From an uncultured virus (IMG/VR IMGVR_UViG_3300006919_000039) (Duplodnaviria; Heunggongvirae; Uroviricota; Caudoviricetes): DNA of 64,000 nt. Shown here piece after piece: positions 1,310 through 52,216 of this stretch; the stretch's first letter is position 1; each line of letters starts with the position of its first letter. Under the pieces are notes generated by a model that did not search any database, was not told the DNA's origin, and saw only the letters and a list, made by a program, of their open reading frames with translations. A program made the position numbers and the translations under genes. The stretch lies in IMG/VR virus record IMGVR_UViG_3300006919_000039; one strand, given 5' to 3'.

Positions 1310-4300
1310 ATGGCTGACATTAAAAACTTTGGTATCAAAGGTATTGCGGCTGATGTGCAAATGGGTAAAAGCGGTGGTAGACTTGTCTACGATAGCGGTA
1401 ACTCAAGATTTGACCTCACGCAATCTGATGGTTCCACATTAGAAGATGTTCGTTTCGGTACAGTAGGTGCAGGTACTTGGCAAGGTACTGCTGTTGGATC
1501 AACATATGGTGGACTTGGAGGAGACTTCAGTAGTTCAACAGGTGTATTGAAAATCAGTAGTGGTACAGTTAGTGCGGCGGCCTTGGATCTTACAGCAGAT
1601 GTAACTGGTGCTTTACCAGTAGCAAATGGTGGTACAGGTGCAACCGACGCCGGTGATGCAAGAACAAACTTAGGTTTGGGAAACATCTCAACACAGGCCA
1701 GTAACAATGTTAATATAGATGGCGGTACTATTGATGGTACTGTTATTGGTGGTACATCAGCGGTGGCAGGTAGTTTCACAACTATTAATGCCTCCGGAGC
1801 AATTACAGGTAACTTAACAGGTACAGCCGATGATGCAGATGCATTATCAAGTGCTGTAACTATTGCTTTATCAGGTGATGCTTCAGGAAGTGCTACATTT
1901 GTTAATGCAGGTGATACTGCAACTATTTCAACAACTCTTGCAAACTCAGGTGTGAGTGCAGGTAGTTATGGTAGTTCAAGTGCAATTCCTGTAATTACAG
2001 TAGATGCTAAAGGTAGGGTTACAAGTGTAACCACTGCGGCAACATCTAGTGTATTGACGATCGGAGCAGACTCCGGTTCAGACGATACTGTAACTGTAGG
2101 TACAGACACCCTTAACTTTGTTGGTACAAGCAACGAAATCGAAACAACAGTTTCTAATAATCAAATACAAATCGGTTTACCAAATGACGTTACAGTTGGA
2201 AACAACTTAACTGTAACAGGTAGTTTCTTATCAGATGATATCACATCTGCCTCAATTAGTATTGCAGGTGATGCCACTATTACTGGTAACTTAACCGTAC
2301 AAGGTACACAGACAACAGTAAATTCAACGACAGTTGAAACAGCAGATGCTATCTTCAGAGTAAACAGTAACGGTGCAGACACTGATGCTGGTTTTGAAGC
2401 AAATGCAAACGGTGTAATCAAACAAATCCTTTACACATCAGTTGGTGATGAGTGGGACTTTGGTTCAGAAAACGTTAAAGCAACTTCATTTGAAGGTGAC
2501 TTAACTGGTGATGTAACAGGTAGTATTGCAGGTGCAACTGCTACTATGACTGGTGCAGTAACTGGTAGTAGTTTAACAGACGGTACTGCTACATTAAGTA
2601 GTGGTGCTTTAAGTGGAGCAACTAACGGTACATTTAGTGGTACTGTACAGTACGGCTCATTAAGTGATGGTACAATCACAATCACAGGTTTTGTTGACGA
2701 AGACAACATGGCTAGTGATAGTGCTAGTTTAGTACCAACTCAACAGTCTGTTAAAGCATACGTTGACTCACAAGTCACAGCACAAGACTTAGACTTTGCT
2801 GGTGACAGTGGTGGAGCATTATCAGTAGATCTAGATAGTCAATCTTTAACTATCGCAGGTGGTACAGGTATTGAAACATCAGGTAGTGGTCAAACATTAA
2901 CTGTTAACCTTTCAGATTCAGGTGTAACAGCAGGTGACTACGGTGGTAGTGCAACTATTCCAACATTTACAATAAATGCTCAGGGACAGATCACAGCAGT
3001 AAGCAATAACTCAATTTCAACAAGTTTTGATATTGCGGCTGACAGTGGTACAAATGACACAGTAAATGGTGGTGAAACACTTACTATTGCAGGTACGGCT
3101 AATGAAATTGAAACAGCAGTAACAAATAATCAAATCCAAGTTGGACTAGTAGATAGCCCACAAGTTGGAAACATTACAGCATCAGGAACAGTAGAAGGTG
3201 GTACCGTAACAGACGGAACATTAAGTATTGCTTCTGGAAGTATTTCATCAGGTGTTGGTGCTACATTTAGTGGTACAGTACAAGGTGGTACTTTAACTGA
3301 CGGTACAGCAAGTTTAAATGCTGGTAACCTATCAAGTGCAGTAAATATTACAGCAAGTGGTACAGTACAATACGGATCTTTAAGTGATGGTACAATCACT
3401 GTAACTGGCTTTGTTGACGAAGACAACATGGCTAGTGATAGTGCTAGTTTAGTACCTACACAACAATCAGTTAAAGCATACGTGGATTCAGTTGCAACAG
3501 CGGCTGACTTGGACTTCCAAGGCGATTCAGGTGGTGCTTTAAGTGTTGACTTAGACTCACAAACATTTACAGTAGCAGGTGGTACAAACCTCAACACAGC
3601 AGGTAGTGGTCAAACATTAACTGTTAATCTTGACGATGCCATCTCACTTACAAATGTTACAGTTTCCGACACATTTACTGACGGTACTTTAAGTATTAGT
3701 GGTGGTGCTATTTCAGGTGCTACAACTGGTGCTTTCTCAAGTGACGTTACAATTGGTGGTAACTTAACTGTAAGTGGTACTACAACAAGTGTTAATTCAA
3801 CAAATACAACCATTGCTGATACATTGATTGAACTTCAATCAGGTTTAAGTGGTGCTAACCCTAACGACATAGGTCACATTTACGAAAGAGGTTCCGATGG
3901 AGACAACGGATTCTTAGGATGGGATCAAAGTGCTGATAGGTTCATGGCGGCAACTACAACAGCAACAGGTAGTGACACAGGCGACCTTAGTTTAACTGCG
4001 GCAGATTTTGAAGCGGCAGGATTTACTGGTACAAGTGCTACAATTAGTGGTGCTGTAAGTTTCGGTTCATTAACAGATAGTGGTGAATCAATTACAGTAA
4101 CTAAGTTTGTTGACGAGGCAGACGGAATCAGCAGTAACGATAACGATACTACTATTCCAACATCAGCGGCTGTTAAAGACTATGTCGATAACAACGGTGG
4201 TGACGGGTTAATACTTAGAAGTACAATAACTAGTGGTAGTGATACAATTGACATTGGTACAGTACCAAATGTTAGTGGTAGAACTTACTATGCAGATAAG

Positions 4301-4567
4301 ATTGTATTTAAGATCAGTACAGGATTTAGTGGTGGTTCTTTTAACCATATTCTTGTTAAAGAGAATGGTGGTTCAGGAAACGTTTTAGTTGCTTCAGCAG
4401 ATGCTGATGCGGCTACGGCTGGATCATACATCATCGAACTTGATGGTGATGATACACTTACTAAGAATGCTAGTATACAAGTACAATTTATGCAATCAGA
4501 TGGAACTACAGCGGCAACTACGTCAGCAGGTGCTGGTGTGGCTACTGTGCATTACAACTGGGTATAA
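1310..4567 (+). CDS. Long tail-fibre/virion fibre protein with internal repeats (1085 aa)
   Basis: G/T/S/D-rich. Fibre motifs LPVANGGTGA, AGSYGS..IPVITVDAKGRVT and PTQQSVKAYVD (2 copies plus a degenerate third). SD AGGAG upstream. Confidence 0.75.
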   Translation: MADIKNFGIKGIAADVQMGKSGGRLVYDSGNSRFDLTQSDGSTLEDVRFGTVGAGTWQGTAVGSTYGGLGGDFSSSTGVLKISSGTVSAAALDLTADVTGALPVANGGTGATDAGDARTNLGLGNISTQASNNVNIDGGTIDGTVIGGTSAVAGSFTTINASGAITGNLTGTADDADALSSAVTIALSGDASGSATFVNAGDTATISTTLANSGVSAGSYGSSSAIPVITVDAKGRVTSVTTAATSSVLTIGADSGSDDTVTVGTDTLNFVGTSNEIETTVSNNQIQIGLPNDVTVGNNLTVTGSFLSDDITSASISIAGDATITGNLTVQGTQTTVNSTTVETADAIFRVNSNGADTDAGFEANANGVIKQILYTSVGDEWDFGSENVKATSFEGDLTGDVTGSIAGATATMTGAVTGSSLTDGTATLSSGALSGATNGTFSGTVQYGSLSDGTITITGFVDEDNMASDSASLVPTQQSVKAYVDSQVTAQDLDFAGDSGGALSVDLDSQSLTIAGGTGIETSGSGQTLTVNLSDSGVTAGDYGGSATIPTFTINAQGQITAVSNNSISTSFDIAADSGTNDTVNGGETLTIAGTANEIETAVTNNQIQVGLVDSPQVGNITASGTVEGGTVTDGTLSIASGSISSGVGATFSGTVQGGTLTDGTASLNAGNLSSAVNITASGTVQYGSLSDGTITVTGFVDEDNMASDSASLVPTQQSVKAYVDSVATAADLDFQGDSGGALSVDLDSQTFTVAGGTNLNTAGSGQTLTVNLDDAISLTNVTVSDTFTDGTLSISGGAISGATTGAFSSDVTIGGNLTVSGTTTSVNSTNTTIADTLIELQSGLSGANPNDIGHIYERGSDGDNGFLGWDQSADRFMAATTTATGSDTGDLSLTAADFEAAGFTGTSATISGAVSFGSLTDSGESITVTKFVDEADGISSNDNDTTIPTSAAVKDYVDNNGGDGLILRSTITSGSDTIDIGTVPNVSGRTYYADKIVFKISTGFSGGSFNHILVKENGGSGNVLVASADADAATAGSYIIELDGDDTLTKNASIQVQFMQSDGTTAATTSAGAGVATVHYNWV
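2636..3630 (+). repeat. Intragenic direct repeat, about 2636-2910 vs 3356-3630 (offset 720 nt)
   Basis: SGTVQYGSLSDGTIT.TGFVDEDNMASDSASLVPTQQSVKAYVDS...DLDF.GDSGGALSVDLDSQ...GSGQTLTVNL occurs twice, with long identical DNA stretches. Confidence 0.9.
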
Positions 4568-4596: not shown

Positions 4597-4627
4597 AAAA
4601 GGGCGGTAATTTACCGCCCTTTTTTTA
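4597..4627. terminator. Bidirectional intrinsic terminator
   Basis: AAAAGGGCGGTAA-T-TTACCGCCCTTTTTTT between convergent genes. Confidence 0.9.
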
Positions 4628-4632
4628 TGAAA

Positions 4633-4797
4633 TCAATACCAAGGATTGTTAGTTACATACTCAGGTAGTTTTCTTTCCTCTGAACGAGGAAAATCAACTC
4701 TGCTGACTTTATAACTCTTAGCTCTAGGGCCAAGGACTTCCTTAGTAAGATCACGTTTGACTGCACGTTTGAATCGTGCTATTTGATACTTAGTCAT
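4633..4797 (-). CDS. 54-aa basic microprotein downstream of the tandem riboswitch (not in ORF track)
   Basis: MTKYQIARFKRAVKRDLTKEVLGPRAKSYKVSRVDFPRSEERKLPEYVTNNPWY*. SD AAGGAG upstream; ends at the terminator. Confidence 0.8.
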   Translation of the reverse strand: MTKYQIARFKRAVKRDLTKEVLGPRAKSYKVSRVDFPRSEERKLPEYVTNNPWY

Positions 4798-4818
4798 GTC
4801 ATCTCCTTTTACAAAGAT

Positions 4819-4879
4819 GCGTTCCTTCGGTACTATTACCTACTTCCGTTCACTGCTACATTTAGAGTGAATGAACGAT
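4819..4879 (-). ncRNA. glnA-class glutamine riboswitch aptamer (proximal copy)
   Basis: AUCGUUCA-UUCAC..GUGAA-CGGAAGUA-GGUA..UACC-GAAGGAACGC: P1 CGUUC/GAACG, hairpins P2 and P3, and the E-loop segments GGAAGUA and GAAG typical of the glnA motif. Confidence 0.88.
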
Positions 4880-4883
4880 TTCG

Positions 4884-4933
4884 GCGTTCCTTCGTCTTAT
4901 GACTACTTCCGTCCTAATGAATAGGATGAACGT
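4884..4933 (-). ncRNA. glnA-class glutamine riboswitch aptamer (distal copy)
   Basis: ACGUUCA-UCCUA..UAGGA-CGGAAGUA-GUC..GAC-GAAGGAACGC: same conserved core as the proximal copy, with different but still paired P2/P3 stems. Confidence 0.88.
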
Positions 4934-4939
4934 ATAAAA

Positions 4940-4947
4940 TATTTATC
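4940..4947 (-). promoter_or_regulatory. Late-type promoter GATAAATA directly 5' of the riboswitch
   Basis: TATTTATC on the + strand, 6 nt from the first aptamer. Confidence 0.55.
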
Positions 4948-4955
4948 TTATCTAA

Positions 4956-5171
4956 TTATTTAGAATTAACAAATTCGTTCAGTTCAGTCGCAACAGCAAC
5001 AATATCTGCCGCAGAAATTTGTTCTACCGGCAATTCTTGTTTGTTTTCAGGATCAATCTCATTGTGGTTAAATACCGCATCGATTTTTCTCTGTTGGTTT
5101 ATATTGATTATACCTTCTGCAAGGTTTAATAGATCGGCTCTGATTTCAAAGCCACTTTTTGTGTTTGACAT
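4956..5171 (-). CDS. Small conserved-type phage protein (71 aa)
   Basis: Strong SD ACAGGAG. The FEIRxxLLxLA...IVxVAxELNEFV pattern resembles small proteins of T4-like phages. Confidence 0.7.
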   Translation of the reverse strand: MSNTKSGFEIRADLLNLAEGIININQQRKIDAVFNHNEIDPENKQELPVEQISAADIVAVATELNEFVNSK

Positions 5172-15204: not shown

Positions 15205-17886
15205 ATGAGTTATGTAGACGCATTTTATGAGCAGTCTAAGGATATCGTAACCGTCATTGAAAGAGTTGATGGCGAACGTATCATTAAAGAACTTAAACCT
15301 GTACACAATTTTTATTATAAAGATCCTAAAGGTAAATCCACAAGTATATATGGCGATCCTGTAACAGAGGTACGTTGTGCTAATATAAAAGATTTTAAAA
15401 AGAATGTTGGTATAAACAAACATAATGGCTTATATGAGAGTGATATAAGACCTCTTAATAAAACACTCGCAGAGCATTATACAAATGGACAAGCACCTAA
15501 ATTACAAACAGCATTTATAGATATTGAGGCAGACTTTGATCCTGCTAGAGGATATAGTAGCCCTCAAGACCCATATTCAATAATAACAGCAATAGGTGTT
15601 TATTTAGACTGGATGGACAGCATGATATGTTTGGCTGTGCCTCCTAAAAGAATATCTTTTGAGCAGGCAAAAGAAATGACAAAGCACATGCCTGAGGTTA
15701 TCTTGTACAAAACAGAAAAAGAAATGCTAGATGCATTTTTAACAGTTATAGATGATGCAGATATTATAAGTGGTTGGAATAGTGAGGGTTATGATATACC
15801 TTACATTGTAAACCGTATTATAAGAGTTATGGGTAAAGCAGAAACTAGAAGGCTTTGCTTGTTAAAAAAATTACCAAAAGAAAGAAAGTTTGAACAATAT
15901 GGCAGAGAAATTACCAGTTACGACCTAGTTGGTCGGGTTCATCTAGACTATCTTAACTTATATAGAAAATACAATTATGAAGAACGACATAGTTATAGGC
16001 TAGACTTTATAGGTGAGATGGAAGTAGGCGAGACTAAAGTTCCTTATGAAGGTAGTCTAGATAGACTTTATAACCATGACTTTGAAAAGTTTTTAGAATA
16101 TAATATACAAGACGTTATGCTGTTGGCTAAAATGGATAAGAAGTTACAATTTATAGATTTAGCAAACATTATTGCACATGAAAATACAATATTATTACCT
16201 CAAACAATGGGTGCTGTAGCAACAACAGAACAAGCAATTATTAATGAAGCACACAGAAGAGATTTTGTAGTGCCTGATAGGCCTAAAGCATCTGACAGAG
16301 ACCAGGCGGCTGGTGCCTTTGTGGCAACTCCTAAGAAAGGATATCATGAATGGGTAGGCAGTATGGACTTAAACAGTCTGTATCCTAGTGTATTTAGAGC
16401 ATTGAATATGGCACCTGAAACTATTGTTGGGCAGTTGCGTTTAGATTATACAGAAGAAACAATAAACAATGCTATGCGATTAGAAAAGAAATCATTTAGT
16501 GATGCATGGCATGGAAAGTTTGGTACTGATGAGTTTGAGTTTGTTAGGGATAAAGATGTAGACCATATAATGCATTTAGATATGGAAGATGGTGCTAGTA
16601 TTGAGGTAACTGGTGCTGATGTTCATACTTTAGTATTTAACAGCGGCCAGCCTTGGAACATAAGTGCTAATGGTACTATTTTTAAAACAGACTTCCAGGG
16701 TATTGTTCCTGGACTATTAGAACGTTGGTATGCAGAAAGACAAGAAATGCAGAAGAAGAAAAAGGAGGCAACGGATTCTGAGGAGATAGCATTTTGGGAT
16801 AAAAGACAGTTGGTTAAAAAGATTCAGTTAAACAGTTTGTATGGTGCTATACTTAATCCAGGTTGTAGATTTTATGATAAACGTATAGGTCAGAGTACAA
16901 CATTAACAGGCAGAAGTATTACTAGACATATGGGAGCTCAAACTAATCTCATGTTTACTGGAGAGTATGATCATGAAGGAGACACAATAATTTATGGAGA
17001 TACTGACTCTGTATATTTTACTGCCGTTCCAGCCTTGCCAGAAGGAGAGGAGTTAAACATGGATAGTGCTATTGCATTATATGATCATGTTTCAGATAAA
17101 GTAAGTGAAACTTTCCCACAGTATCTAAAAGACACATTTAATGTGCCGTTAGAAACAGGACAGGTAATGAAAGCAGGTAGAGAAGTTGTTGGCAGATCTG
17201 GTTTGTTTCTAACCAAGAAGAGATACGCAATATTTTGTTTAGATATAGAAGGTTATCAACCTGAAGGCGGTAAACTTAAAGCAATGGGTTTAGAGATTAA
17301 ACGTAGTGATACTCCTGAATTTATTCAAGACTTTTTAGAAGAAACTTTGGTAGACTGTTTACAAGGCATGGGCGAAGATCATGCTATACAAAAAATTAAA
17401 GATTTTAAGGAATACTTTAAAGGTTTAGAGCCTTGGAAGAAAGGTATGCCTAAACGTGCAAACAATGTTACTATGTACACCGCCAAACTAATGGCTAAGG
17501 CTAAAGTGCCTGAAAATTACAGACTACACAAACTAGATGCTGTTAAAAATGAAGGGCAAAGTAACATGGTTCCAGGGCATGTAAGAGCAAGTATAAACTG
17601 GAATAACTTAAGACAAGCAAACAGCGACAACTACAGCCTTCCTATAACTGATGGTATGAAAGTGGTTGTTTGTAAATTAAAGAACAATCCCATGGGATAT
17701 ACGAGCGTCGCATATCCTACAGATGAACTGAACTTACCACAATGGTTTAAAGAGTTGCCTTTTGATGAAGAAGCAATGGAAGAAAGTGTTGTGGATAAAA
17801 AAGTAGAAAATGTATTAGGTCCATTTGGATACGATTTAAGTAGGACTACAGAAAGTGAGACACTTTCTACATTTTTTGAATTTTGA
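15205..17886 (+). CDS. Family B DNA polymerase (gp43-like)
   Basis: ExoI DIE, ExoII GWNSEGYD, ExoIII YNIQD; polymerase motifs DLNSLYPS, KIQLNSLYG, YGDTDS, KKRY. Confidence 0.97.
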   Translation: MSYVDAFYEQSKDIVTVIERVDGERIIKELKPVHNFYYKDPKGKSTSIYGDPVTEVRCANIKDFKKNVGINKHNGLYESDIRPLNKTLAEHYTNGQAPKLQTAFIDIEADFDPARGYSSPQDPYSIITAIGVYLDWMDSMICLAVPPKRISFEQAKEMTKHMPEVILYKTEKEMLDAFLTVIDDADIISGWNSEGYDIPYIVNRIIRVMGKAETRRLCLLKKLPKERKFEQYGREITSYDLVGRVHLDYLNLYRKYNYEERHSYRLDFIGEMEVGETKVPYEGSLDRLYNHDFEKFLEYNIQDVMLLAKMDKKLQFIDLANIIAHENTILLPQTMGAVATTEQAIINEAHRRDFVVPDRPKASDRDQAAGAFVATPKKGYHEWVGSMDLNSLYPSVFRALNMAPETIVGQLRLDYTEETINNAMRLEKKSFSDAWHGKFGTDEFEFVRDKDVDHIMHLDMEDGASIEVTGADVHTLVFNSGQPWNISANGTIFKTDFQGIVPGLLERWYAERQEMQKKKKEATDSEEIAFWDKRQLVKKIQLNSLYGAILNPGCRFYDKRIGQSTTLTGRSITRHMGAQTNLMFTGEYDHEGDTIIYGDTDSVYFTAVPALPEGEELNMDSAIALYDHVSDKVSETFPQYLKDTFNVPLETGQVMKAGREVVGRSGLFLTKKRYAIFCLDIEGYQPEGGKLKAMGLEIKRSDTPEFIQDFLEETLVDCLQGMGEDHAIQKIKDFKEYFKGLEPWKKGMPKRANNVTMYTAKLMAKAKVPENYRLHKLDAVKNEGQSNMVPGHVRASINWNNLRQANSDNYSLPITDGMKVVVCKLKNNPMGYTSVAYPTDELNLPQWFKELPFDEEAMEESVVDKKVENVLGPFGYDLSRTTESETLSTFFEF

Positions 17887-40712: not shown

Positions 40713-40902
40713 TATGCTTCTCTATTATACCTTGTGCTATATCACTTATTTTTTTTACGGATTCATTCAAGGAGTCATATCTTTTCTTAAGTTCTGCTCC
40801 ATAAACTGGACATACGCCTCTATGGTTAGGTAATTCGCCACCACAAGTTGTACATTTGCCTTCTAATTTATATTGTATTGAGCGCCAATCAGTCTCTGAC
40901 AT
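40705..40902 (-). CDS. Small zinc-binding protein
   Basis: CTTCGG....H...C. Confidence 0.55.
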   Translation of the reverse strand: MSETDWRSIQYKLEGKCTTCGGELPNHRGVCPVYGAELKKRYDSLNESVKKISDIAQGIIEKHNV

Positions 40903-42403
40903 GTACCTTTACTCCGTAATGTTTGGCAAAGGCTTCTGCGTCTGCTTCATCATTTACAATGGGTTGTCCTTTTATGTTTAAACTGGTATTAAGTAACATT
41001 GGGCACCCACTCTTTTTGTAAAAAGATGTAAGCAGTTCATGTAGATCAGGATGTTCTTCCTGCCTGACTGTTTGCACACGGCTAGTTCCGTCTGCGTGAA
41101 TTATAGCAGGGAATTCATCTGGTTTTTTACACTTTGCTACAAACTGCATATATGGAGCATGATTTATACCACCGGGCATTTCAAAATAATCATGTACATG
41201 CTCCTCCAGTATCATTGGCGCAAATGGTCTAAACTTTTGACGTTTCTTGATCACATTCATTTGATCTTTTACGTCTGGCCCTCTAGGGTCAGCACATAGG
41301 CTTCTATTACCTAATGCACGTGGCCCGAACTCAGCTCTACCATTTGCTATCCCAAAAAGTTCCCCCTTTTTTAAACTTGCTAATGCTTTTTTAATTGGAT
41401 ATTTTCCTTCTATATTGTAACCTAGGTAAGGTGTTTTCCAATTAATACGTTCTCCTGTAGTATTGTATAGTTCAAGTGCGGCGGCACCTAAACTGCTCCC
41501 ACAATCTCCAGGGTTAGGCATTATAAAAATATTTTTAAAAGTATCAAATAGTAAACTGTTTGCTACACAGTTTAGTGCTACACCTCCCATGTAAACTAAA
41601 TTGTTACTTCCTGTTAGTTCTTTGGCAAATTGGGCATAAGAATTTACCCTTTCTTCCACTTGTTCTTGAGCCGCGGCCGCCAAATCAAAATCATCTACAC
41701 CTACAAAACTGTTAATAGGTAATCCTCGTTGTAAATTTTCTTTCATTATAATAGACTGTCTATGACTTACCCAAGGATGTTTGTATTTAAAAAATCTTTT
41801 ACCCATCTTTTTACTTAATGGCTTCCAATTTTCTCTTTTACCATATGCCGCCATGCCCATTAAGATGTATTCGTCTTCCATAGGTTTTAGTCCTACATGC
41901 TGTGTTACTGCACTATAAAATAAACCTAAACTGTTTGGGAAATTTACACTATGTAACCTTTTTAATTTGCCTTCTTGCCAATGCCATATGGTTGCTGTGT
42001 TAAATTCACCTATAGCATCTATAACCATAACAGCACATTCGTCAAAATTACTGCTTAATACACCTGCGGCCGCATGTGTTTCATGATGTAAATATTCTTT
42101 AATTGGAATGTCTTTAAGTTCAGGATAAAACTTTTTGATCCATTTCTTTTGTGTTGGCTCTAATAATGCTCTCCAATTACCGTTTACTAAATTTCTGCAT
42201 TTTTTAAGCCATGCTTTTTCGTGTAATACAATTACATCTGGTTTACCACCCGCTAAAGCATCTGAAATTATTTCATGATTAATCCAGGCATCATTTTTTA
42301 TTTTGCTGTATCTTTCTGAATGACTAGCAAATTCTATTTCATTGCCGTCCAGCATACAAACACCAGCATCGTGAAATCCAAAACTTAATCCAAGTGTTCT
42401 CAT
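40889..42403 (-). CDS. O-carbamoyltransferase (NodU/CmcH/TobZ family)
   Basis: HDAG, ERYS..K, HHETHAA, GGVALNC, EFGPRALGNRS, RPFAP, LNTSLN. Confidence 0.95.
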   Translation of the reverse strand: MRTLGLSFGFHDAGVCMLDGNEIEFASHSERYSKIKNDAWINHEIISDALAGGKPDVIVLHEKAWLKKCRNLVNGNWRALLEPTQKKWIKKFYPELKDIPIKEYLHHETHAAAGVLSSNFDECAVMVIDAIGEFNTATIWHWQEGKLKRLHSVNFPNSLGLFYSAVTQHVGLKPMEDEYILMGMAAYGKRENWKPLSKKMGKRFFKYKHPWVSHRQSIIMKENLQRGLPINSFVGVDDFDLAAAAQEQVEERVNSYAQFAKELTGSNNLVYMGGVALNCVANSLLFDTFKNIFIMPNPGDCGSSLGAAALELYNTTGERINWKTPYLGYNIEGKYPIKKALASLKKGELFGIANGRAEFGPRALGNRSLCADPRGPDVKDQMNVIKKRQKFRPFAPMILEEHVHDYFEMPGGINHAPYMQFVAKCKKPDEFPAIIHADGTSRVQTVRQEEHPDLHELLTSFYKKSGCPMLLNTSLNIKGQPIVNDEADAEAFAKHYGVKVHVRD

Positions 42404-42537
42404 CTGTATATAAAAGGGTCTCTTTTGCGAAGCTCTTCTAACTTCTTTTTAAGTTGTTCTTCTTCCTCTTTTGTTAATGATAAATCATCTACTTTAGAGT
42501 TATCCTCTTTTTTGTTTTCTTCTTTTTTATTATCCAT
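42400..42537 (-). CDS. 45-aa microprotein ending RKRDPFIYR (not in ORF track)
   Basis: MDNKKEENKKEDNSKVDDLSLTKEEEEQLKKKLEELRKRDPFIYR*; ATGA-coupled to the carbamoyltransferase. Confidence 0.7.
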   Translation of the reverse strand: MDNKKEENKKEDNSKVDDLSLTKEEEEQLKKKLEELRKRDPFIYR

Positions 42538-43159
42538 TATAAGTATCCATAAAACTTTTTAACTCAAGAAATATTTTTTTATATAATAATTGATGCGATA
42601 TGTGTTTACTTTCATCAAATCCTTCAGGATATAATTTTAAATATCTCTCTATAAAACTATCATGTGGCATATAATATTTACTTGTATCTATGCTATTCCA
42701 TAAAGGTTCATGGCAGTCTTTAGGTATTGAATTGTACATATTACAATAAATATAATCTATATTTTTACTTTTAAAATACTCTTGCAAACCTATCTGATAT
42801 ATTAATAAATTATACAAACCTACCTTCCAATTAGTCATATGCAAATCAGCAAAATTTAAAAATTTTTGTAAGTCTGGATTATCTGATTGTTTGCCTAGAG
42901 AATATTGATATACTCCTTCGTCAAAATTAAACTCGAATCGTTCGTGAGTTGTCCAACCTATTATAACTAAGTCAACATTGTGTCTTTCACAATATTCTAT
43001 GGTTGATTTAAAAATAGCAAAGTTACTGTTGCCACCTACAGCAATATTATTTGTATCATAACTTTTAAAATAGTCATTAAATGAGTGTGGCTTATATTCT
43101 AAACTAGGTCCTTGTATTCCTGAGGTATGACTACACCCGTTAATTAAAAGTTTTTTCAT
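42530..43159 (-). CDS. SGNH-like hydrolase-fold protein
   Basis: NGCSHT, NIAVGGNSN, IIGWT..ER, C-terminal His. Confidence 0.6.
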   Translation of the reverse strand: MKKLLINGCSHTSGIQGPSLEYKPHSFNDYFKSYDTNNIAVGGNSNFAIFKSTIEYCERHNVDLVIIGWTTHERFEFNFDEGVYQYSLGKQSDNPDLQKFLNFADLHMTNWKVGLYNLLIYQIGLQEYFKSKNIDYIYCNMYNSIPKDCHEPLWNSIDTSKYYMPHDSFIERYLKLYPEGFDESKHISHQLLYKKIFLELKSFMDTYNG

Positions 43160-44475
43160 CTATTGCTTTTGTACATCAAATTAAATAACTCTGGAAATGC
43201 TTCTTCCATAGATTCGTCTCTATTATTATCTAATAGCTCAGTATATTTTTGGAATGTTGCTAGTTCCTGTCTCCAATTTGCATGTCTTCTTTCTTTAAGA
43301 GCATTAATCGTTGCTGTAACTGTTTGTATATTAATATCTCTTTTGGCTAATATTTCACTTCTCTGTAACCACTGCTCTAATCTACCAATTGCAACTTCTC
43401 TTACTTGATCAGGACAGTTTCTAAAGTCTAAACTTGTAGGATAATCGCAAATTAAGAATGTAACAAATATTTCTCTACCGTATTCCTTTTCTAATTCTTC
43501 GCAATAGTCTAATAATTTTGTTATTGTTAAAACATTATAAATTTGTATTACAGGAGAAAAGTTTACGGTTCCAACTACATCGCTTTCACAATATTTTCTT
43601 ATGTTTTTATCTACTTGTTTCCAATGACTTGCACCACGGATATATTCGTTTTCACTTCCATAAGCATCAACACTAACACACATTAATACACTTTTAAATT
43701 GCTCTACAAGGTTTATAAAACGTTTTTGTACATTAGTCATGTTACTGTTAAAAACTAAATCTATATCTTTTGCTATACCCATTTCAACACATTTTTCCAT
43801 TATCCAATATACACGTTCTATAATGGTAGGCTCACCGCCAGTAAAATATAATCTGTTTACACCAGGTAACCATTCTTCTACTTGTCTTAAAAACTCAGGA
43901 TCGTCTTCCCAAGGTGTTACGTGGTCAGCAAAATGCCCCCATGTAAAATTATCCTTTATAAATTGTGCTGATTCAGGACTTTTACTTTCTATCTTTTTAT
44001 ATTCTTTTTGTATTTGGCTTGAATTTTGTGGCTGACACATTCTGCATTTCAGGTTACACATGTTGCCAAGTCTAAAGTCTAAGTACATAGGAGGTTCTTC
44101 CACGTGGTAATCGCTTTCAATACTTTTTTCTATTATGTCATGTATTTTTTCTCCATAAGGACTGTACTCAAACCAATCTCTTATGTAATTCAATCTGTAA
44201 CTTGGAAATCCCATATCTTCTTGATCGTAACACCTAGTACATTGAGGTACTGACTCTCCTTCAATCATTTGGCGTCTTACTTCTTTCATATGATTATTGT
44301 TCCATACACTTTCAATTTTATCGCCGTTGTTTAAATTAAACATTGTACCGTCATCATTTTGGAATTGTTTTCTAGCCACACAACAAAAATTAGCCGCTCC
44401 AGTAGGTTGAGTCATTATAGAAATCCATGGATATGGACAAAATGTTTTGTTGTTCATGTAATCTCTATTGCTCAT
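43156..44475 (-). CDS. Radical SAM protein with N-terminal Twitch/SPASM-like domain (#1)
   Basis: CPYPW..CC..CTRC; CNLKCRMC; TGGEP. Confidence 0.9.
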   Translation of the reverse strand: MSNRDYMNNKTFCPYPWISIMTQPTGAANFCCVARKQFQNDDGTMFNLNNGDKIESVWNNNHMKEVRRQMIEGESVPQCTRCYDQEDMGFPSYRLNYIRDWFEYSPYGEKIHDIIEKSIESDYHVEEPPMYLDFRLGNMCNLKCRMCQPQNSSQIQKEYKKIESKSPESAQFIKDNFTWGHFADHVTPWEDDPEFLRQVEEWLPGVNRLYFTGGEPTIIERVYWIMEKCVEMGIAKDIDLVFNSNMTNVQKRFINLVEQFKSVLMCVSVDAYGSENEYIRGASHWKQVDKNIRKYCESDVVGTVNFSPVIQIYNVLTITKLLDYCEELEKEYGREIFVTFLICDYPTSLDFRNCPDQVREVAIGRLEQWLQRSEILAKRDINIQTVTATINALKERRHANWRQELATFQKYTELLDNNRDESMEEAFPELFNLMYKSNR

Positions 44476-44493
44476 ATTTTTTCTCTTTTAAAC

Positions 44494-44511
44494 GGGCTGG
44501 CGAACCAGCCC
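44494..44511 (-). terminator. GC-rich UUCG hairpin (terminator or processing/stability element)
   Basis: GGGCTGG-TTCG-CCAGCCC followed by GTTT. Confidence 0.55.
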
Positions 44512-44597
44512 TATGCTCCTTTATTATCTAGGTTAAAGTCTTCTACACTTCCTTTTACTAGAAATTAATGTGTTACATAAGGTTTACTCCTCTATTG

Positions 44598-45815
44598 CTA
44601 AAACTCCTCTGGGGCATTCCCATAGTTTTTTAATAGTTCATAAAACTCTGGAAATGTGTCTTTAAAACTTTCGCCTCTGAATTGGTCGCTAAATTTCGTT
44701 GATGAATAAAACTTTTCTAATTCTGCTTGGTCGTAATCTACGTCTGTACAATACTTTACTGAACTTACAATATCTGGATGATTGTTACCTCTATACTTAT
44801 CTGCAATTTTTTCTTTTACTGTTGAAGGGAGGACCTTACAACTATAATGTTGTGGAGTATAAACATGATTAAAATATACTGGTAAATCTTGTTTAAAACT
44901 ATCTCGCCATTGCAGTATTTCTTCCATATAATAAATGTTAAAAATACCCACAGTATAACAAATATCTAAATGTATAGAAGGAATATTTAAATCAATAATA
45001 CGTTGTAAATTTTCTTGCACCTGGTCCCATTTAGCAGGGTGTCTGATATATTCAAATTGTTTACCAACACCGTCAAAACTAAAACTAAGAAGTACTCTGT
45101 CAAAATGTTTCCAAATGTCTACACCTTTGTCAGGATATACACTTCCATTTGTATTATACAGTAAAGTCATTTCTTTACTTCTGCCAGACTCTACTAATTT
45201 TTCTAATATATCATAATGCCTTTCTATAAGCAGTGGTTCTCCACCATAAAATTCTAATACTTTTAAATCTGTACTTATGTTTTCAAAATCTTCCCAAAAA
45301 CTTTCATTTGTTTCAGGCCATCTACCTACTTGTCTCATATGGTCCCAAAACTGATTACCATATCCTCTTTGCTCTTGTAAAAACTTGTCGTATTTTTTCT
45401 CTTCTGGTACCCACAAACTACTAGCATAACTACTACAAATTCTACATTTGTTATTACAAATATTACCTAATTTTAAATCCATAGCAATAGGTTTTTCGTT
45501 AATTTTACCTTGCTCTGCTTCTGCTTTTGCATTAGGAAAATCACGTAATGCTCTCTGACGTTTACTATCTATACCGGCGTCTTCGGCAGTCCAGCAACTA
45601 TAACAGGCCTCTGGTTTTTTACCGTCCAAAAAGTCCTGCCTAAGTTTTGCTAACCATTCACTTTTCCAACCATCACTTAATGTGTCTTCTGTTAAGCAAA
45701 ATTTATTTTCAGAATCTTTTTGCATTACTTCGTCCATTTGACAGCAGATAGCAATACCGCCATCAGTTCTGGCTTCTAAATTTACAAACGGCATTGGGCA
45801 AAAATGTTTACTCAT
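44598..45815 (-). CDS. Radical SAM/Twitch protein (#2)
   Basis: Start MSKHFC (ATGA overlap); CNNKCRIC; YGGEP. Confidence 0.9.
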   Translation of the reverse strand: MSKHFCPMPFVNLEARTDGGIAICCQMDEVMQKDSENKFCLTEDTLSDGWKSEWLAKLRQDFLDGKKPEACYSCWTAEDAGIDSKRQRALRDFPNAKAEAEQGKINEKPIAMDLKLGNICNNKCRICSSYASSLWVPEEKKYDKFLQEQRGYGNQFWDHMRQVGRWPETNESFWEDFENISTDLKVLEFYGGEPLLIERHYDILEKLVESGRSKEMTLLYNTNGSVYPDKGVDIWKHFDRVLLSFSFDGVGKQFEYIRHPAKWDQVQENLQRIIDLNIPSIHLDICYTVGIFNIYYMEEILQWRDSFKQDLPVYFNHVYTPQHYSCKVLPSTVKEKIADKYRGNNHPDIVSSVKYCTDVDYDQAELEKFYSSTKFSDQFRGESFKDTFPEFYELLKNYGNAPEEF

Positions 45816-45922
45816 GCTCTGTGCCACTCACCGTTTTTAAATACCACAAGTTCTCCATATTGGTCTAAACTGTATTCTCCTTCTTCAGGATTCTGTGGTT
45901 CTTTTACTTTTATTTTTGTCAT
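45812..45922 (-). CDS. 36-aa microprotein coupled on both sides to radical SAM genes (not in ORF track)
   Basis: MTKIKVKEPQNPEEGEYSLDQYGELVVFKNGEWHRA*; ATGA overlaps at both ends. Confidence 0.7.
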   Translation of the reverse strand: MTKIKVKEPQNPEEGEYSLDQYGELVVFKNGEWHRA

Positions 45923-47154
45923 AACTCTGCTAACTCTGGAAAAACATTTTCAAATGTTTCGTTCCTTAATTTATCAAATTCTACATTAAAATCTTTAAAC
46001 TCTTGCCATAGTTCTGTATGATCATCATCTAAAAACTTAATTGCACTTTTATATCCTTCTGTTGCTCTACCTATATGGTCCTGTGGTTCTAACCATGCTA
46101 AATGTCTTTGCCATTTATTTTTAATTTTATCCTTAAACTCTGTAGGCAACACACTCATTCTAAAACGTGGGTTATTTAGTAGCACATTCATATACCAATC
46201 GCCTGGTTGTATGTAGCCTGCCTCTACCCAGTTCCTATGAAAGTCAGTTATATGCCAGGCATTATAGGCACTTACCGTTGCACTTACATAAAAATCTATT
46301 TCAGGTGCTTTTAATCTTAATCTCTCTATGTTATTTACTACATCTGCCCATTTTGTACCTTTACGTTGATACTCTCCGCGTATTCCTTCTGCATCTAAAC
46401 TTGCACCTATACTAATATTGTCAAAGTTTTTCCATAATTCTAAAACATCATACTTTTTATAATTTAATTTTGTAAAGTTTGTATTATAAAATATTCGTAT
46501 ATCCGTTTTCCCCATCTCTACAAGTTTATTCATTATGGCCCAATGCTCGTCCATTATAATAGGCTCACCACCAGCCCAATATATTTGTTCTATATGTTCT
46601 AACATAGGTTCAAACTCGTCCATAAATCCATCAACATCTTTACGAATCTGTATTATTTGTTCTGTAGGGCTAATGTTAAAACTACTCTTTACAGCATCAG
46701 CAAACCAATTACTACTCAGTTCTGGACCACAGTATCTGCAACGTAAATTACAAACATTACTAAAACGGAAATCTAAATATACAATATGTAAATCATCTAA
46801 ACTACCGTCCGTATTTGTTTTTTCAACTTTATCCCAATGAGGTTCTAACCAGTCTCGGTTACTTCTTACTCTCAAACTGTCGTGTCCTTTATCTTCTTTT
46901 TCATAGCAACGTACACATTGCGAACACTTTTTACCGTTTAACATGTTTAAGCGAACTTGTTTCATTTTTTCGCTATTCCAAACTTCTTGTAAACTATTTT
47001 CTCGCAAATCACCTATATGATCTTCCCAAGGAGAATCACAACATAACATTGTTTTACCATTAGGCCAAGGGTGCATATGAATCCAGGGCAGGATACACAT
47101 TACATCATTTTTACTAATGTCTTCAAAATTTAAACTATTTGACTGTTTATCCAT
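45919..47154 (-). CDS. Radical SAM/Twitch protein (#3)
   Basis: CILPW..CC..CVRC; CNLRCRYC; AGGEP. Confidence 0.9.
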   Translation of the reverse strand: MDKQSNSLNFEDISKNDVMCILPWIHMHPWPNGKTMLCCDSPWEDHIGDLRENSLQEVWNSEKMKQVRLNMLNGKKCSQCVRCYEKEDKGHDSLRVRSNRDWLEPHWDKVEKTNTDGSLDDLHIVYLDFRFSNVCNLRCRYCGPELSSNWFADAVKSSFNISPTEQIIQIRKDVDGFMDEFEPMLEHIEQIYWAGGEPIIMDEHWAIMNKLVEMGKTDIRIFYNTNFTKLNYKKYDVLELWKNFDNISIGASLDAEGIRGEYQRKGTKWADVVNNIERLRLKAPEIDFYVSATVSAYNAWHITDFHRNWVEAGYIQPGDWYMNVLLNNPRFRMSVLPTEFKDKIKNKWQRHLAWLEPQDHIGRATEGYKSAIKFLDDDHTELWQEFKDFNVEFDKLRNETFENVFPELAEL

Positions 47155-48263
47155 TCTATCTCTAAATTTATATCACCAAGTTTTTTACATAATTCAATAT
47201 TGTGATCGAATCTTGATTTTAAATTTTCTAAATGTTTGTTCCAATTTTCTACAGGAAGAGAAGTATAATCTTTAAGATTGTCAGCAATAATATCACATCT
47301 TTTAAAAATATTATCTTCTTTATCATAATTGTGATCTAACAGATCATCAAATACGTCAAATCCTAGTTTTCGTAAATGTTCAACATAACCTGCAGAAGCA
47401 ATAAACAATGGTAATTGTCTACAATAAAAACTTTTTGTGGTTTTTTCTGTTAAAAAATATCTGTCAGTGTTGTTTCTGCACCATCCATAACTCTTATTTT
47501 GATAAACAGATTCAGCACATGTTTCATTATACCCTACACCACTTTCCATAACTATATTAAAAACGGCATTATCAAAATTGTGTAAATTATCCCATTGCTG
47601 ATGGTCATCATCTCCCAAATCTATTGGAAATTTTTCTATAAAGTCTGGATTTATTAAAAATTCTTTTATTAAATCTCTGTTATTATGGGAAAATGGTCCG
47701 TTGCTGTCAAAAAAATCTTTTTGCCCCCAACCACAACTGACCATACCATGCTGTACTAAATTTTTATCTAATAATTTTCCAGTAAAATAAATTCTTTCTG
47801 CTCTGGGCATTCTTGCTAATGACACAAAATGTACACTTTTAGGCTGTAATCCTTTTTCTATTATGGATTTATAATTGTATTCCAGTCTGTTAAAAGAAAA
47901 ATAACTGGTTTTATGGCATATAGGTATATCCACTAAATGTCTTAACAAATGGCCTTCTGTTAGGCCTCCATCTGTCCATATTATTTTTTTATACCCTTTA
48001 AATTTTACTATATCAAATATGATATTCCAGTATGTACTGTGCATTGCTTCTTCAGAATAGGTTAAATATATACTATGAGTAACAGGCAACTTCTCTAATG
48101 CTTCTTTAGTATATGTTGGAAGCTCAGACTCCAGAGTATTACTATAATTTATAATACAAACATCTCCAGATATATTTTCAAATATAGGATTAAAATTTTC
48201 CTCTTCCTTGTGAGCAACTAATATATTATTTTTTGTTTTACTTATATACATGTTGTATTCCAT
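47130..48263 (-). CDS. Glycosyltransferase-like protein (TEK..P.F..GF.VF..YD family)
   Basis: R.PR.ER; NIVMES; LTEKTTK; LGFDVFDD...NYD. Confidence 0.5.
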   Translation of the reverse strand: MEYNMYISKTKNNILVAHKEEENFNPIFENISGDVCIINYSNTLESELPTYTKEALEKLPVTHSIYLTYSEEAMHSTYWNIIFDIVKFKGYKKIIWTDGGLTEGHLLRHLVDIPICHKTSYFSFNRLEYNYKSIIEKGLQPKSVHFVSLARMPRAERIYFTGKLLDKNLVQHGMVSCGWGQKDFFDSNGPFSHNNRDLIKEFLINPDFIEKFPIDLGDDDHQQWDNLHNFDNAVFNIVMESGVGYNETCAESVYQNKSYGWCRNNTDRYFLTEKTTKSFYCRQLPLFIASAGYVEHLRKLGFDVFDDLLDHNYDKEDNIFKRCDIIADNLKDYTSLPVENWNKHLENLKSRFDHNIELCKKLGDINLEIEWINSQIV

Positions 48264-49479
48264 ATTTCTCTAATAAGTCTATAAGCTCTGGGAATATTTC
48301 CCTCCAACCTTTTTCGTGTAGGCGTATTTTATCTAACTCGTCATTGTACCGACAAAAGTGTTCCCATTTAACTTCATCCCAATCATCGTTATCATACATA
48401 CTCAACAATGTTCCGAGTTCATATCTGTTACCCATCGTTTTTCTAAACTTGGTATGGGCCGCAAGTCTCACGACGGGCGGTAATATTCCGGGCGATAGGT
48501 AATCAGGGTCATAAACAAAGTTCATATCCACAGGCACTGGTGCCCAGTCTAAAAACTTATCTAAATAAATGTAACTGTAAGCACTAACAGTTTGAGTAAT
48601 TCTAACTGTGAGCTCAGGTACATCTTTTATCAGACTTAAATTTTTCTCTACATCTGACCATTCTGTAGGAAATCTGATATATTGATTTCTGTGTTCCAGG
48701 TCGTCTATACTAGGACAAACTCTGGCTTCTTTAAATTCTTTCCAAAGTGGTATTGCTTCTTCAGGCAAATTTGTCATGTTAATATTATACCACAGTATAA
48801 TATTTTTACTGCGGCCACTATCAACTAATTTGCGTAAGTAATTCCAATGTGCTTTAATAAGTGTTGGCTCACCACCATTGATATATAAAACTTCCATGTT
48901 AGGCGCACACTCAAATAAATCCTCATAAAAATTTTCATCTTCTGGCCACTGAAAGTCGTGTTTGTGGTCTAACCAACTGTATCCGTCATTTACGAAGTCC
49001 AAGGACTCAACAATTTCTTTATAATCTTTAACCCACCTTGAACTACTTGCTGGATTACAAGTGCGACAGCGGACATTACATACATTACCAAGACGCAACT
49101 CGACAAAACGAAGATCCAAAGGTATGCTACCATCCTCACTTGTAATTCTGGATGAGTAATCGGCGTCAAAGTCCTTATATATCTTGGACTCGTAGATACG
49201 TTTGCTCTCAATTCCTTTTCTTTCTTCATCGTAGCATCTTTTACATGCTTTAGGCTCCACATCATTTAACATCTCCCTTCTAATCTGCTTAAAATAATCA
49301 CTATTCATATGTGTATCAATATTGTGATCATTTAAATTGAAAAATACATCTCCCTTTTCAGTAAAGTCTCTTGCTCTGTTTTTACCTGCTGTCATGTCAG
49401 AGATACAACAAGGAGTTACACCACCATGTGGGTGTGTACCTAAATGCATCCAAGGTAAAGGACAAAATGTTTTACTCAT
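48238..49479 (-). CDS. Radical SAM/Twitch protein (#4)
   Basis: CPLPW..CC..CKRC; CNVRCRTC; NGGEP. Confidence 0.9.
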   Translation of the reverse strand: MSKTFCPLPWMHLGTHPHGGVTPCCISDMTAGKNRARDFTEKGDVFFNLNDHNIDTHMNSDYFKQIRREMLNDVEPKACKRCYDEERKGIESKRIYESKIYKDFDADYSSRITSEDGSIPLDLRFVELRLGNVCNVRCRTCNPASSSRWVKDYKEIVESLDFVNDGYSWLDHKHDFQWPEDENFYEDLFECAPNMEVLYINGGEPTLIKAHWNYLRKLVDSGRSKNIILWYNINMTNLPEEAIPLWKEFKEARVCPSIDDLEHRNQYIRFPTEWSDVEKNLSLIKDVPELTVRITQTVSAYSYIYLDKFLDWAPVPVDMNFVYDPDYLSPGILPPVVRLAAHTKFRKTMGNRYELGTLLSMYDNDDWDEVKWEHFCRYNDELDKIRLHEKGWREIFPELIDLLEKYGIQHVYK

Positions 49480-50807
49480 TATATGTATGTTCCTTTTTCT
49501 ATTGCTCCGTACATTGGGTCTTTTTCTGCCCTATTGTACAATAAATCATAATCAAAATCTTCTTTTACTATTTCCCATAACTCTGGAAATATTTGTCTAA
49601 AATCTTCTTTTCTGTATTGGTCTCCAGATACAACCTGTTTTCTAAACATATTCCATCTTACTGCTATTTCACTTTCTACAGTATTGTTTTGGTCCTCTCC
49701 GTATGCTGTAACAGTATCTTTTTGTCTTGCTGTAGCATGACGTAATATGCCTTTCATTTCTGAAATATATTTTTGCTCAAATAATCCTTCTCTTATTGCT
49801 TTTTGTAATCCTTCAACACTTCGTTCTTTCATCTCATCTGGTAAAACATTAGGATTAAACCAACTAGGTAAGTTTGCTATATTATGAAAAATATCAAATC
49901 TAGGCCAACGTTCCCTAAATTCTTGATGAAATTCTACCAAATACATCAAATTTAAAATAGTAACAGTATTGGTTATACCTGCATGTATTTTTCCGTCCTC
50001 TACCCACTTATGTATTTTGTCTAAGTTAGCAGAAACTTCTTCCCAATTACCTGGAAATCTTAGATATTCAAATCTTTTACCTATTCCATCTATGCTTACA
50101 TTAAAAGCAACATTGTCAAAATTTTCTATAACTCTTTCTAAAAACTCTCCACCTGCCTGTGTTCCATTAGTACTAAAATTTATGCCGATGTTTTTAGCAT
50201 ATCCTTGATCTATTAATTTTTCGGCAAAAGTTTTAAACTCTTTCATGTACAACGGTTCGCCACCCATTATTTCTAAATTTTTTATGTGTGGAATCCAGTC
50301 ATCCATTTCGGTCCAAAACTTTGATCGTTCCTGATCGTCCATTGGTACTGGTACTACTTCTTTAAAATAAGGCAAACCTCTGGCATTTGCTTCTTTTACC
50401 CACTTGCTACTGTAATTTGGATTACAACTTCTGCATTTTAAATTACATGTCGTGCTTAAAATAATTTGCATATCCTGAGGCATGTCAGGTTCTACTGAAT
50501 AATCTATAGGATCTAATCTCCATTCGGCATATTCATTGTAAATTTGCCTTTTGGATTTTTTACCGTTTGCTTCTTCTCTCCAACAAGGCTCACAGTTTTC
50601 AGGAAGTTTACCTTCCCTGATTTCTTGTCTTATTTTTTTATAATAATTGCTATGAAATATATCGCGTACTGAAGTTGAACCTAGTGTAAAGTCTTCTCCA
50701 TTATCATCTTTTACTCGCTCTTTTGCTATACAGCAAGTTCTGACTTGGCCTAAAGGCTCATTACTAAGATGAGCCCATAGTAAACTACAATACCTAGGTT
50801 CTGACAT
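49479..50807 (-). CDS. Radical SAM/Twitch protein (#5)
   Basis: CSLLW..CC..CEPC; CNLKCRSC; MGGEP. Confidence 0.9.
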   Translation of the reverse strand: MSEPRYCSLLWAHLSNEPLGQVRTCCIAKERVKDDNGEDFTLGSTSVRDIFHSNYYKKIRQEIREGKLPENCEPCWREEANGKKSKRQIYNEYAEWRLDPIDYSVEPDMPQDMQIILSTTCNLKCRSCNPNYSSKWVKEANARGLPYFKEVVPVPMDDQERSKFWTEMDDWIPHIKNLEIMGGEPLYMKEFKTFAEKLIDQGYAKNIGINFSTNGTQAGGEFLERVIENFDNVAFNVSIDGIGKRFEYLRFPGNWEEVSANLDKIHKWVEDGKIHAGITNTVTILNLMYLVEFHQEFRERWPRFDIFHNIANLPSWFNPNVLPDEMKERSVEGLQKAIREGLFEQKYISEMKGILRHATARQKDTVTAYGEDQNNTVESEIAVRWNMFRKQVVSGDQYRKEDFRQIFPELWEIVKEDFDYDLLYNRAEKDPMYGAIEKGTYI

Positions 50808-50808
50808 A

Positions 50809-52125: not shown

Positions 52126-52171
52126 CTCTATCTCCTGTTGTGTTATTGTGTGTAGTTTTTAAACTACTGAC

Positions 52172-52179
52172 TATTTATC
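52172..52179 (-). promoter_or_regulatory. Late-type promoter GATAAATA
   Basis: TATTTATC on +, about 47 nt upstream of the dehydrogenase. Confidence 0.55.
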
Positions 52180-52216
52180 GGGTCGGAATTAGCAGTATTA
52201 CTGCTTATGGCAGGGA

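Follow-up and report, generated by a model that had tools for sequence, protein, structure and literature searches.

Glutamine riboswitches have already been reported in marine phages, and the locus described here raises the question of what such a switch controls in a viral genome. The window under analysis (the whole stretch of 64,000 nucleotides (nt) of IMG/VR record IMGVR_UViG_3300006919_000039) comes from an uncultured virus of the Caudoviricetes. On its minus strand, positions 4947-4597 are best explained as a transcription unit complete in itself, belonging to an uncultured marine tailed phage and running from a putative NATAAATA late-type promoter to an intrinsic terminator, and positions 4934-4816 are, judged from their sequence, a genuine tandem type-1 glutamine riboswitch, for which binding of L-glutamine is predicted. 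By analogy with the gifB leader of Synechocystis, the tandem riboswitch most likely gates translation of a conserved basic protein of 54 amino acids (aa) from the late-type promoter, and translation of this small protein would most likely be turned on when the host cell is glutamine-rich. Such an interpretation had been proposed by an earlier model-made reading of the letters (the sequence-only reading) and was supported here, since its aptamer, linkage, hairpin and promoter-box parts each held by computation; glutamine binding, late timing and switch direction are what we infer.

A covariance-model scan of the whole window (cmscan, 4227 families of Rfam 15) left RF01739 (glutamine riboswitch, glnA RNA; gathering cut-off of 35 bits) as the sole family at gathering score, with two matches, both on the minus strand. 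Aptamer 1 (4881..4934) scored 57.8 bits (E 3.9e-10) and aptamer 2 (4816..4879) 60.3 bits (E 8.1e-11), each covering model positions 1-53 of 53 without truncation. This bore out the two adjacent glnA-class units, with P2 and P3 stems differing in sequence and paired in each, that the sequence-only reading had described, as well as the two minus-strand matches that it had expected from the Rfam model. The same scan gave no tRNA or transfer-messenger RNA (tmRNA) match in the window. The two units have CGUUCA...CGGAAGUA...GAAGGAACGC in common, and the conserved RF01739 core was complete in both (CGUUCA, ACGGAAGUA with the junction GG, and GAAGGAACG-C with the linchpin C). Aptamer 1 displayed the stems P1 CGUUC/GAACG, P2 UCCUA/UAGGA and P3 GUC/GAC, and aptamer 2 the stems P2 UUCACU/AGUGAA, closing an 11-nt loop, and P3 GGUA/UACC. 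A single base (4880) separated the Rfam matches and 7 nt separated the P1 helices, while only one Shine-Dalgarno (SD) hairpin was encountered; two complete aptamers of the same class with a short linker and one platform make this a tandem riboswitch.

Pairing of the variable stems was assessed with all aptamers matching the exact core pattern in the window and in viral loci L001-L135 (164 instances, 123 distinct). Among the distinct aptamers, P2 was paired in 83 % of cells, compared with a mean of 60 % and a maximum of 64 % when the 3' arms were re-dealt; P3 was paired in 92 % of cells, compared with a mean of 54 % and a maximum of 60 %. Each stem position displayed three to six pair types. 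Since the set was chosen by exact core pattern, it is uninformative on variation of the core.

One 23-nt P2 hairpin (4849-4871, minus strand; 6-bp stem and 11-nt loop) was found in identical form in aptamer 2 of the window and of loci L131 and L132, and in aptamer 1 of L134 and L135, accompanied by a different P3 each time. At the level of sequence, its recurrence suggests module exchange between aptamer units.

The link between these aptamers and the 54-aa open reading frame (ORF) behind them was conserved in other viruses. Fifty IMG/VR stretches matched the peptide pattern, and 15 were confirmed as loci encoding relatives of the ORF; they contribute nine distinct leaders besides that of the window, and the 15 loci and the window together are counted below as 16 leaders. 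RF01739 was located directly upstream of the ORF in all 15 loci (29 aptamer matches, 54-66 bits), in tandem in 14 of them and as a single copy in L133, so that the synteny which the sequence-only reading had suggested looking for in related phage contigs was encountered without exception. The last Rfam match ended 18 nt before the ATG in 16 out of 16 leaders. Seven remoter members of the family, with NP[FY]YP at the end of the protein, were added by a pattern scan, and six of these were tandem. The cassette moves, as its genomic surroundings differed among loci: in L128, L131 and L133 it adjoined the genes that neighbour it in the window (tail-fibre, 2-oxoglutarate (2OG)-oxygenase-like and NT5C-like), though differently ordered and oriented; L121-L125 and L134 have it in the head-tail module, and L129 and L130 elsewhere again. 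Cultured-phage relatives were scarce: no more than two marginal matches came from blastn with the 3 kb surrounding the site, and none from blastn with the leader. The nearest record (G001, 33 kb) displayed no RF01739 match.

The ORF itself (4633..4797, minus strand; ATG at 4797, stop codon 4635-4633) encodes a protein with an isoelectric point (pI) of 10.2, belonging to a family of the form MTKYQ...RAVK...LP.Y..NP[WFY]Y. A search of 5.8 billion protein clusters yielded 15 homologue clusters of 51-67 aa that were 63-100 % identical, and a profile search of 1.84 billion representatives yielded 26 clusters at E<=0.001, all of 41-66 aa. The N-terminus (MTKYQIA..KRA.KR.LTKE) and the C-terminus (LP.Y..NNPWY) were invariant while the middle was variable with in-frame gaps. 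In the conserved end segments of ten distinct coding sequences, differences at codon positions 1, 2 and 3 numbered 295, 150 and 546, respectively. A real conserved gene is indicated by the invariant protein ends, by the gaps being in frame and by differences being highest at the third codon position.

To date, viral or metagenome contigs are the only known carriers of this conserved and basic family. It was encoded by none of the 50,697 GenBank phage records searched by tblastn, and no relatives of the ORF were detected in 185,579 prokaryote species genomes. The family of 26 clusters has no counterpart in Pfam or PHROGs, and profile searches with the protein of the window likewise gave no usable match in Pfam, PHROGs or PDB (the best, phrog_5489, had E 0.07); a search of the ESM Atlas returned nothing usable. 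The AlphaFold2 (AF2) model displayed a confident N-terminal helix (residues 3-22), the rest being of low confidence (pLDDT 71, pTM 0.35). The product is a small helical, strongly basic protein which, given its position behind the riboswitch, most likely serves as an effector made only in nitrogen-replete hosts, late in infection.

Membership of this family in DUF4278/IF17 was considered and rejected at profile level. With the 54-aa protein as query, Pfam yielded nothing at E<=1, DUF4278 (PF14105) included; seven of its relatives, among them three with a central Y.YRGV.Y motif, likewise had no match at E<=10, and hhalign gave a probability of 0.1 % for alignment with viral DUF4278-like ORFs. 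This motif occurs in a few members of the 54-aa family, and permissive single-linkage BLAST joined the family to the DUF4278 group only via such YRG-motif members, which is taken as a hint only.

Between aptamer 2 and the ORF, the expression platform (4800..4819, minus strand) was defined from minimum free energy (MFE) and centroid folds and from covariation. It is composed of an anti-SD arm CAUCUUU (4819-4813), a loop GUAAAA and an SD arm GGAGAUG (4806-4800), forming seven pairs with a free energy of -6.1 kcal/mol (z -2.3 against shuffles) in which three of the four GGAG bases are paired. Folding of the complete leader returned the hairpin by MFE as well as in the centroid structure. It starts directly after P1 of aptamer 2 and ends 2 nt (AC) before the ATG, and C4819 is at once the conserved C after P1, equivalent of the linchpin C60, and the first base of the anti-SD arm. 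The sequence-only reading had pointed to CAUCUUU-GUAAAA-GGAGAUG as a hairpin able to bury the SD of the ORF; it is indeed there, and it is conserved with compensatory changes.

This conservation emerged from the tails of 122 leaders, taken from GGAACG to the start codon and reduced to 92 distinct sequences. The base after GGAACG was C in 92 out of 92, though the search pattern had left it free. In 69 tails this first C was paired in the MFE fold with a G just ahead of the start codon, the hairpin enclosing the SD; in 65 of these 69, the distance from the end of the helix to the start codon was 1-5 nt. Position 1 of the helix was always C-G, whereas positions 3-5 varied with compensation (CG/UA/UG/AU), giving 16 arm combinations; among leaders of the 54-aa family, for instance, CAUCU/AGAUG and AAUCU/AGAUU alternate, together with others.

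How such a platform might work is suggested by the gifB switch of Synechocystis (Klähn et al.), as described in the part of PMC6212724 drawn on here. Ligand binding creates the long-range pair G23-C60, which is G40-C68 in gifB; C68 and its downstream bases are able to base-pair with the ribosome-binding site, an interaction that glutamine was postulated to melt. Reporter output from gifB rises with nitrogen (PMC6212724), and these are the only in vivo data for the class. According to the section consulted of PMC11477058, a review which also sets out the roles of G22/G23 and C60 in the aptamer core, G23 inserts into P1 and pairs with C60 only in the ligand-bound state. CAUCUUU/GGAGAUG is a platform of this gifB type, in which the C after P1 and the next bases pair with the ribosome-binding site.

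In the mechanism proposed for the window, C4819 and the following AUCUUU would, without glutamine, pair with GGAGAUG and hide the SD 2 nt before the start codon. L-glutamine on aptamer 2 would draw C4819 into the core, where it would pair with the junction G (the G23-C60 linchpin pair of the solved aptamer), and the hairpin, then without its closing pair, would allow ribosome initiation. A translational ON switch is what we infer by analogy with gifB, since C4819 is both linchpin C and first anti-SD base; ligand binding, timing and direction are part of that inference.

Aptamer 1 has no platform of its own. The two units can mispair because their P1 strands are identical: the P1 3' strand of aptamer 1 can pair with the P1 5' strand of aptamer 2, leaving the outer strands free to form the closing helix of a nested fold. 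Nearest-neighbour energies were -29.4 kcal/mol for the nested and -26.1 kcal/mol for the side-by-side arrangement, and -33.7 kcal/mol for the unconstrained MFE, which contains an inter-aptamer hairpin. Both units would have to be loaded for the correct fold, giving a steeper, more switch-like response. Modelled by these fold energies, a tandem loading requirement would sharpen the response, in agreement with the "more digital" behaviour ascribed to tandem glnA RNAs in the portion of PMC2864571 relied on here.

Upstream, the unit opens with a GATAAATA box (4940..4947, minus strand), a candidate T4-late-type promoter located 7 nt upstream of P1 of aptamer 1 and one mismatch from the T4 box TATAAATA. 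The sequence-only reading had already placed this box before the aptamers, and the relatives agree: an ATAAATA box, preceded by G, T or A, was found 6-23 nt upstream of the first P1 in 16 out of 16 leaders, related loci carrying TATAAATA, AATAAATA or GATAAATA. In ten loci the box directly followed an intrinsic terminator, which argues that the cassette is its own transcription unit. The window harbored seven copies of GATAAATA (first bases at 1228, 4947, 5290, 13007, 31659, 52179 and 59594), all of which face a same-strand gene start 22-143 nt away, one of these being that of a tail-fibre-like gene. Five of the seven were wholly within the non-coding 4.6 % of the window, for which our own arithmetic gives a binomial chance of ~4e-6. 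By its placement, GATAAATA behaves as a putative promoter box of this phage. In L124 and L134 the cassette was located between T4-type major head and tail tube genes, and late timing is plausible from this structural-module context together with the placement of the box.

At its other end, the unit is closed by an intrinsic terminator read from the sequence (4597..4619, minus strand), with the stem GGGCGGUA/UACCGCCC, the loop AAU and then UUUU. It is bidirectional: on the plus strand seven T follow, and there it closes the converging tail-fibre-like gene (1310-4567, 1085 aa). A consensus terminator scan did not list 4597-4619, as only four T follow on the minus strand.

Several results weigh against a glutamine-responsive ON switch under a late-type promoter. 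As to the RNA, the nearest-neighbour MFE fold of the leader forms P1 of neither aptamer, which lends no support, though it is expected for this junction. In only 42 of 91 tails were at least three of the four flagged SD bases directly paired, the SD lying partly in an interior loop of the hairpin in many of them, and in 23 of the 92 tails the first C was unpaired in the MFE fold. The hairpin statistics moreover derive from MFE folds, which are biased toward pairing (89 % paired in the re-dealt control, 99 % observed), and the start-codon rule mis-called some ORFs (e.g. in L012, L023, L070, L075 and L085). As to the promoter, the total number of GATAAATA copies was not enriched (seven observed, Markov mean 6.75), only their placement being non-random; the exact T4 box TATAAATA occurred three times in the window, each time inside a gene; and no gp55 or gp33 homologue was detected in the 64 kb. 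Finally, the 54-aa protein displayed no detectable relation to DUF4278/IF17, the known target of the class. With these points counted in, a late-type promoter, two aptamers, the platform, the 54-aa protein and the terminator working jointly as an ON switch remain, in our estimate, a probable explanation of the locus.

The same tandem riboswitch might work in the opposite direction, with a ligand-stabilised P1 stacking on the ribosome-binding-site hairpin and stabilising it, so that the protein would be made only at low glutamine. The geometry permits this, as the hairpin starts directly after P1 and coaxial stacking without a spacer is possible; by our own reading, the purine run GAAGGA of the aptamer could in the apo state also compete for the anti-SD bases UCUUU, and the mechanism of the class was termed unclear in the part of PMC6212724 consulted. 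Yet the sole in vivo data for the class (PMC6212724) show expression going up with nitrogen. The hairpin moreover always opens with the C that is recruited into G23-C60 once ligand is bound, which makes the two states mutually exclusive at the closing pair. An OFF switch is accordingly considered unlikely, though it deserves more credit than any other alternative. Action on transcription (termination or antitermination) or on RNA stability, instead of on translation initiation, would suit the frequent control of terminators by riboswitches, and the unit does possess a terminator of its own 3' of the ORF. Between aptamer 2 and the ATG, however, only the 20-nt SD hairpin and AC-AUG are found, with no terminator-like hairpin followed by a U-run, and across loci such hairpins contain the SD and end 1-5 nt before the start codon; regulation at that level is very improbable.

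It is equally hard to believe that the aptamers are non-functional remnants, or an RNA in their own right such as a glutamine sponge or a trans-acting RNA, while the ORF is translated regardless. One published phage copy was, in PMC9004378, assigned to a tmRNA and not to an ORF; but the core bases are all intact, the stems covary and the 18-nt spacing to the ATG holds in all 16 leaders. These features and the covarying anti-SD helix show selection on the whole leader as a cis unit, and the copy of phage Melnitz (see below) also has a hairpin and a small ORF. A chimeric host fragment, which the sequence-only reading had named as an outcome that would overturn its proposal, or a chance resemblance, can be regarded as already refuted. 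E-values were around 1e-10, phage genes flank the unit on both sides in a continuous 64-kb window, and the unit recurred on 15 viral contigs, several times inside a T4-type structural module, while the prokaryote genomes searched contained no relative of the ORF; our analysis of the window and its relatives found no point in favour of such an origin.

The preferred reading, an ON switch for a small protein, was set against a wider survey in which the aptamer core pattern was found on at least 120 viral contigs (L001-L120, IMG/VR). Among the 120 matches listed, a small downstream ORF was called by script in 106, the other 14 giving no ORF call, and 102 of the 106 products had a pI >9. The called ORFs among these matches fell into 18 sequence clusters, ten of which had at least two members, with families such as MNRFDHL..NGxGTSGY..NNW, MNFKWDL..KDPRLQGI, MTYRPFxWK.., MDRFTFWCF.. 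and MKTKNNWQL... One cluster among the listed matches was DUF4278/IF17-like with YRG repeats, and its L039, L067 and L080 passed the Pfam cut-off of PF14105.

The published copy of phage Melnitz (MZ577097) could be placed in the same scheme. Its aptamer (46398-46446, 52.8 bits) is located at the 3' end of an annotated tmRNA and is followed by CACUUAACC...GGGGAGAGUG, a hairpin between a C-initiated anti-SD and the SD, and then by an unannotated basic ORF of 32 aa (46469-46567, MTLYQQWCY...) that resembles the small ORFs of L042 and L077. At this site (L138:999-1168, corresponding to MZ577097 46398-46567) the ORF annotated in the record is a different one, of 33 aa and on the other strand. It is the unannotated small ORF, rather than the tmRNA, that more likely represents the target of the Melnitz switch.

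Directly upstream of the unit, the window encodes an acidic protein of 71 aa (4956..5171, minus strand; stop codon 4958-4956; pI 4.5), modelled by AF2 as a two-helix hairpin (pLDDT 88). It has 22 homologue clusters, and homologues adjoined the riboswitch-small-ORF unit in 11 fetched loci (L019, L057, L065, L114, L126-L130, L134 and L135), either upstream or downstream of cassettes belonging to at least three different small-ORF families. No family match was obtained, and Foldseek gave no PDB match at E<=0.001. The protein may be a partner of the basic peptides; it was not shown to be part of the switch. A role as gp33-like late co-activator, considered because its C-terminal LNEFV resembles QLNFLP of a Melnitz protein, was rejected for now (hhalign probability 0.9 %, no PHROGs match and no Foldseek match).

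The window is phage DNA of 33.8 % G+C with genes for a family-B DNA polymerase, tail-fibre-like proteins, a 7-deazaguanine pathway and radical-SAM proteins. Its DNA polymerase (15205-17886, plus strand) was closest to jumbo phages (Sinorhizobium Phosso, Agrobacterium Atu_ph07 and the Escherichia 121Q group), with 42-46 % identity over 97-98 % of its length, cyanophages and pelagimyophages not being the closest. This indicates that the riboswitch cassette is common to distant myovirus lineages. Between 23901 and 27640 (plus strand), a nucleotide-sugar epimerase, a phosphoribosyl transferase, a GTP cyclohydrolase and a QueE-like radical-SAM gene together look like the 7-deazaguanine (queuosine-precursor) pathway used by phages for DNA modification. 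A block at 40889-57957 (minus strand), with at least seven radical-SAM-like proteins, a Nol-like carbamoyltransferase and a UDP-glucose dehydrogenase, may represent a sugar or hypermodification pathway.

A broader proposal, which we put forward tentatively and consider rather doubtful in its full form, is that marine phages carry the glutamine riboswitch as a portable promoter-to-terminator cassette gating a repertoire of tiny basic proteins, of which the MTKYQ...NNPWY family would be a new class of glutamine-gated effector. If so, host nitrogen assimilation or late functions of the phage would be the target of this effector, possibly in concert with the 71-aa acidic protein, and its action would not be restricted to phages of cyanobacteria; copies already published for phages, among them the "tmRNA control" of Melnitz, would have been assigned to the wrong target.

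Compared with known systems, the riboswitch itself is an ordinary member of a class already reported in marine phages. The sequence-only reading had overstated its rarity: according to the portions of these articles drawn on here, glnA RNAs, tandem ones included, have been known since 2010 (PMC2864571), two glutamine aptamer copies were identified in cyanophage genomes by McCown et al., who judged phage riboswitches rare (PMC5473149), the motif was listed for T4-like cyanophages (PMC9964418, PMC9602691), and Buchholz et al. encountered it in Melnitz, Mosig, ten pelagimyophage metagenome-assembled viral genomes (MAVGs) and five GOV2 contigs, assigning it to tmRNA control (PMC9004378). No description of small ORFs behind phage glutamine riboswitches was found in the literature searched, the supplementary tables of PMC9004378 and PMC6212724 aside. 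What is new is the target protein family, the conserved cassette layout and the finding of small basic ORFs as usual cargo.

The closest counterpart, the gifB (IF17) leader of Synechocystis, shares with the window the three-stem aptamer, all core bases and the C after P1 that opens the anti-SD, and it likewise controls a very small basic protein with a probable ON response. In contrast to gifB, the window displays two aptamers before one platform and a phage late-type box instead of an NtcA-controlled promoter, its product is not a DUF4278/IF17 protein, and the carrier is a phage with a jumbo-phage-like DNA polymerase. Known tandem riboswitches share with the window two complete aptamers of the same class 5-8 nt apart before one platform; the window differs in that its P1 helices are identical in sequence and permit a strand-swapped nested fold, cooperativity being predicted only. 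The marine phage copies (Melnitz, Mosig and others) represent the same RNA class in large marine myoviruses, and that of Melnitz has a hairpin and a small basic ORF like the window, although it is single and its 32-aa ORF belongs to another family.

Riboswitches were for a long time regarded as rare in phages, and PMC5473149 recorded just two glutamine aptamers in phage genomes; the glutamine switch is nevertheless common on marine viral contigs (at least 120), with a conserved layout of late-type promoter, one or more aptamers, a hairpin laid over the ribosome-binding site from the linchpin C, and a tiny basic protein. The answer offered to what phage glutamine switches control is small proteins, rather than tmRNA or glnA, and the 54-aa family provides a defined handle on how phages may use the glutamine level of their hosts late in infection.

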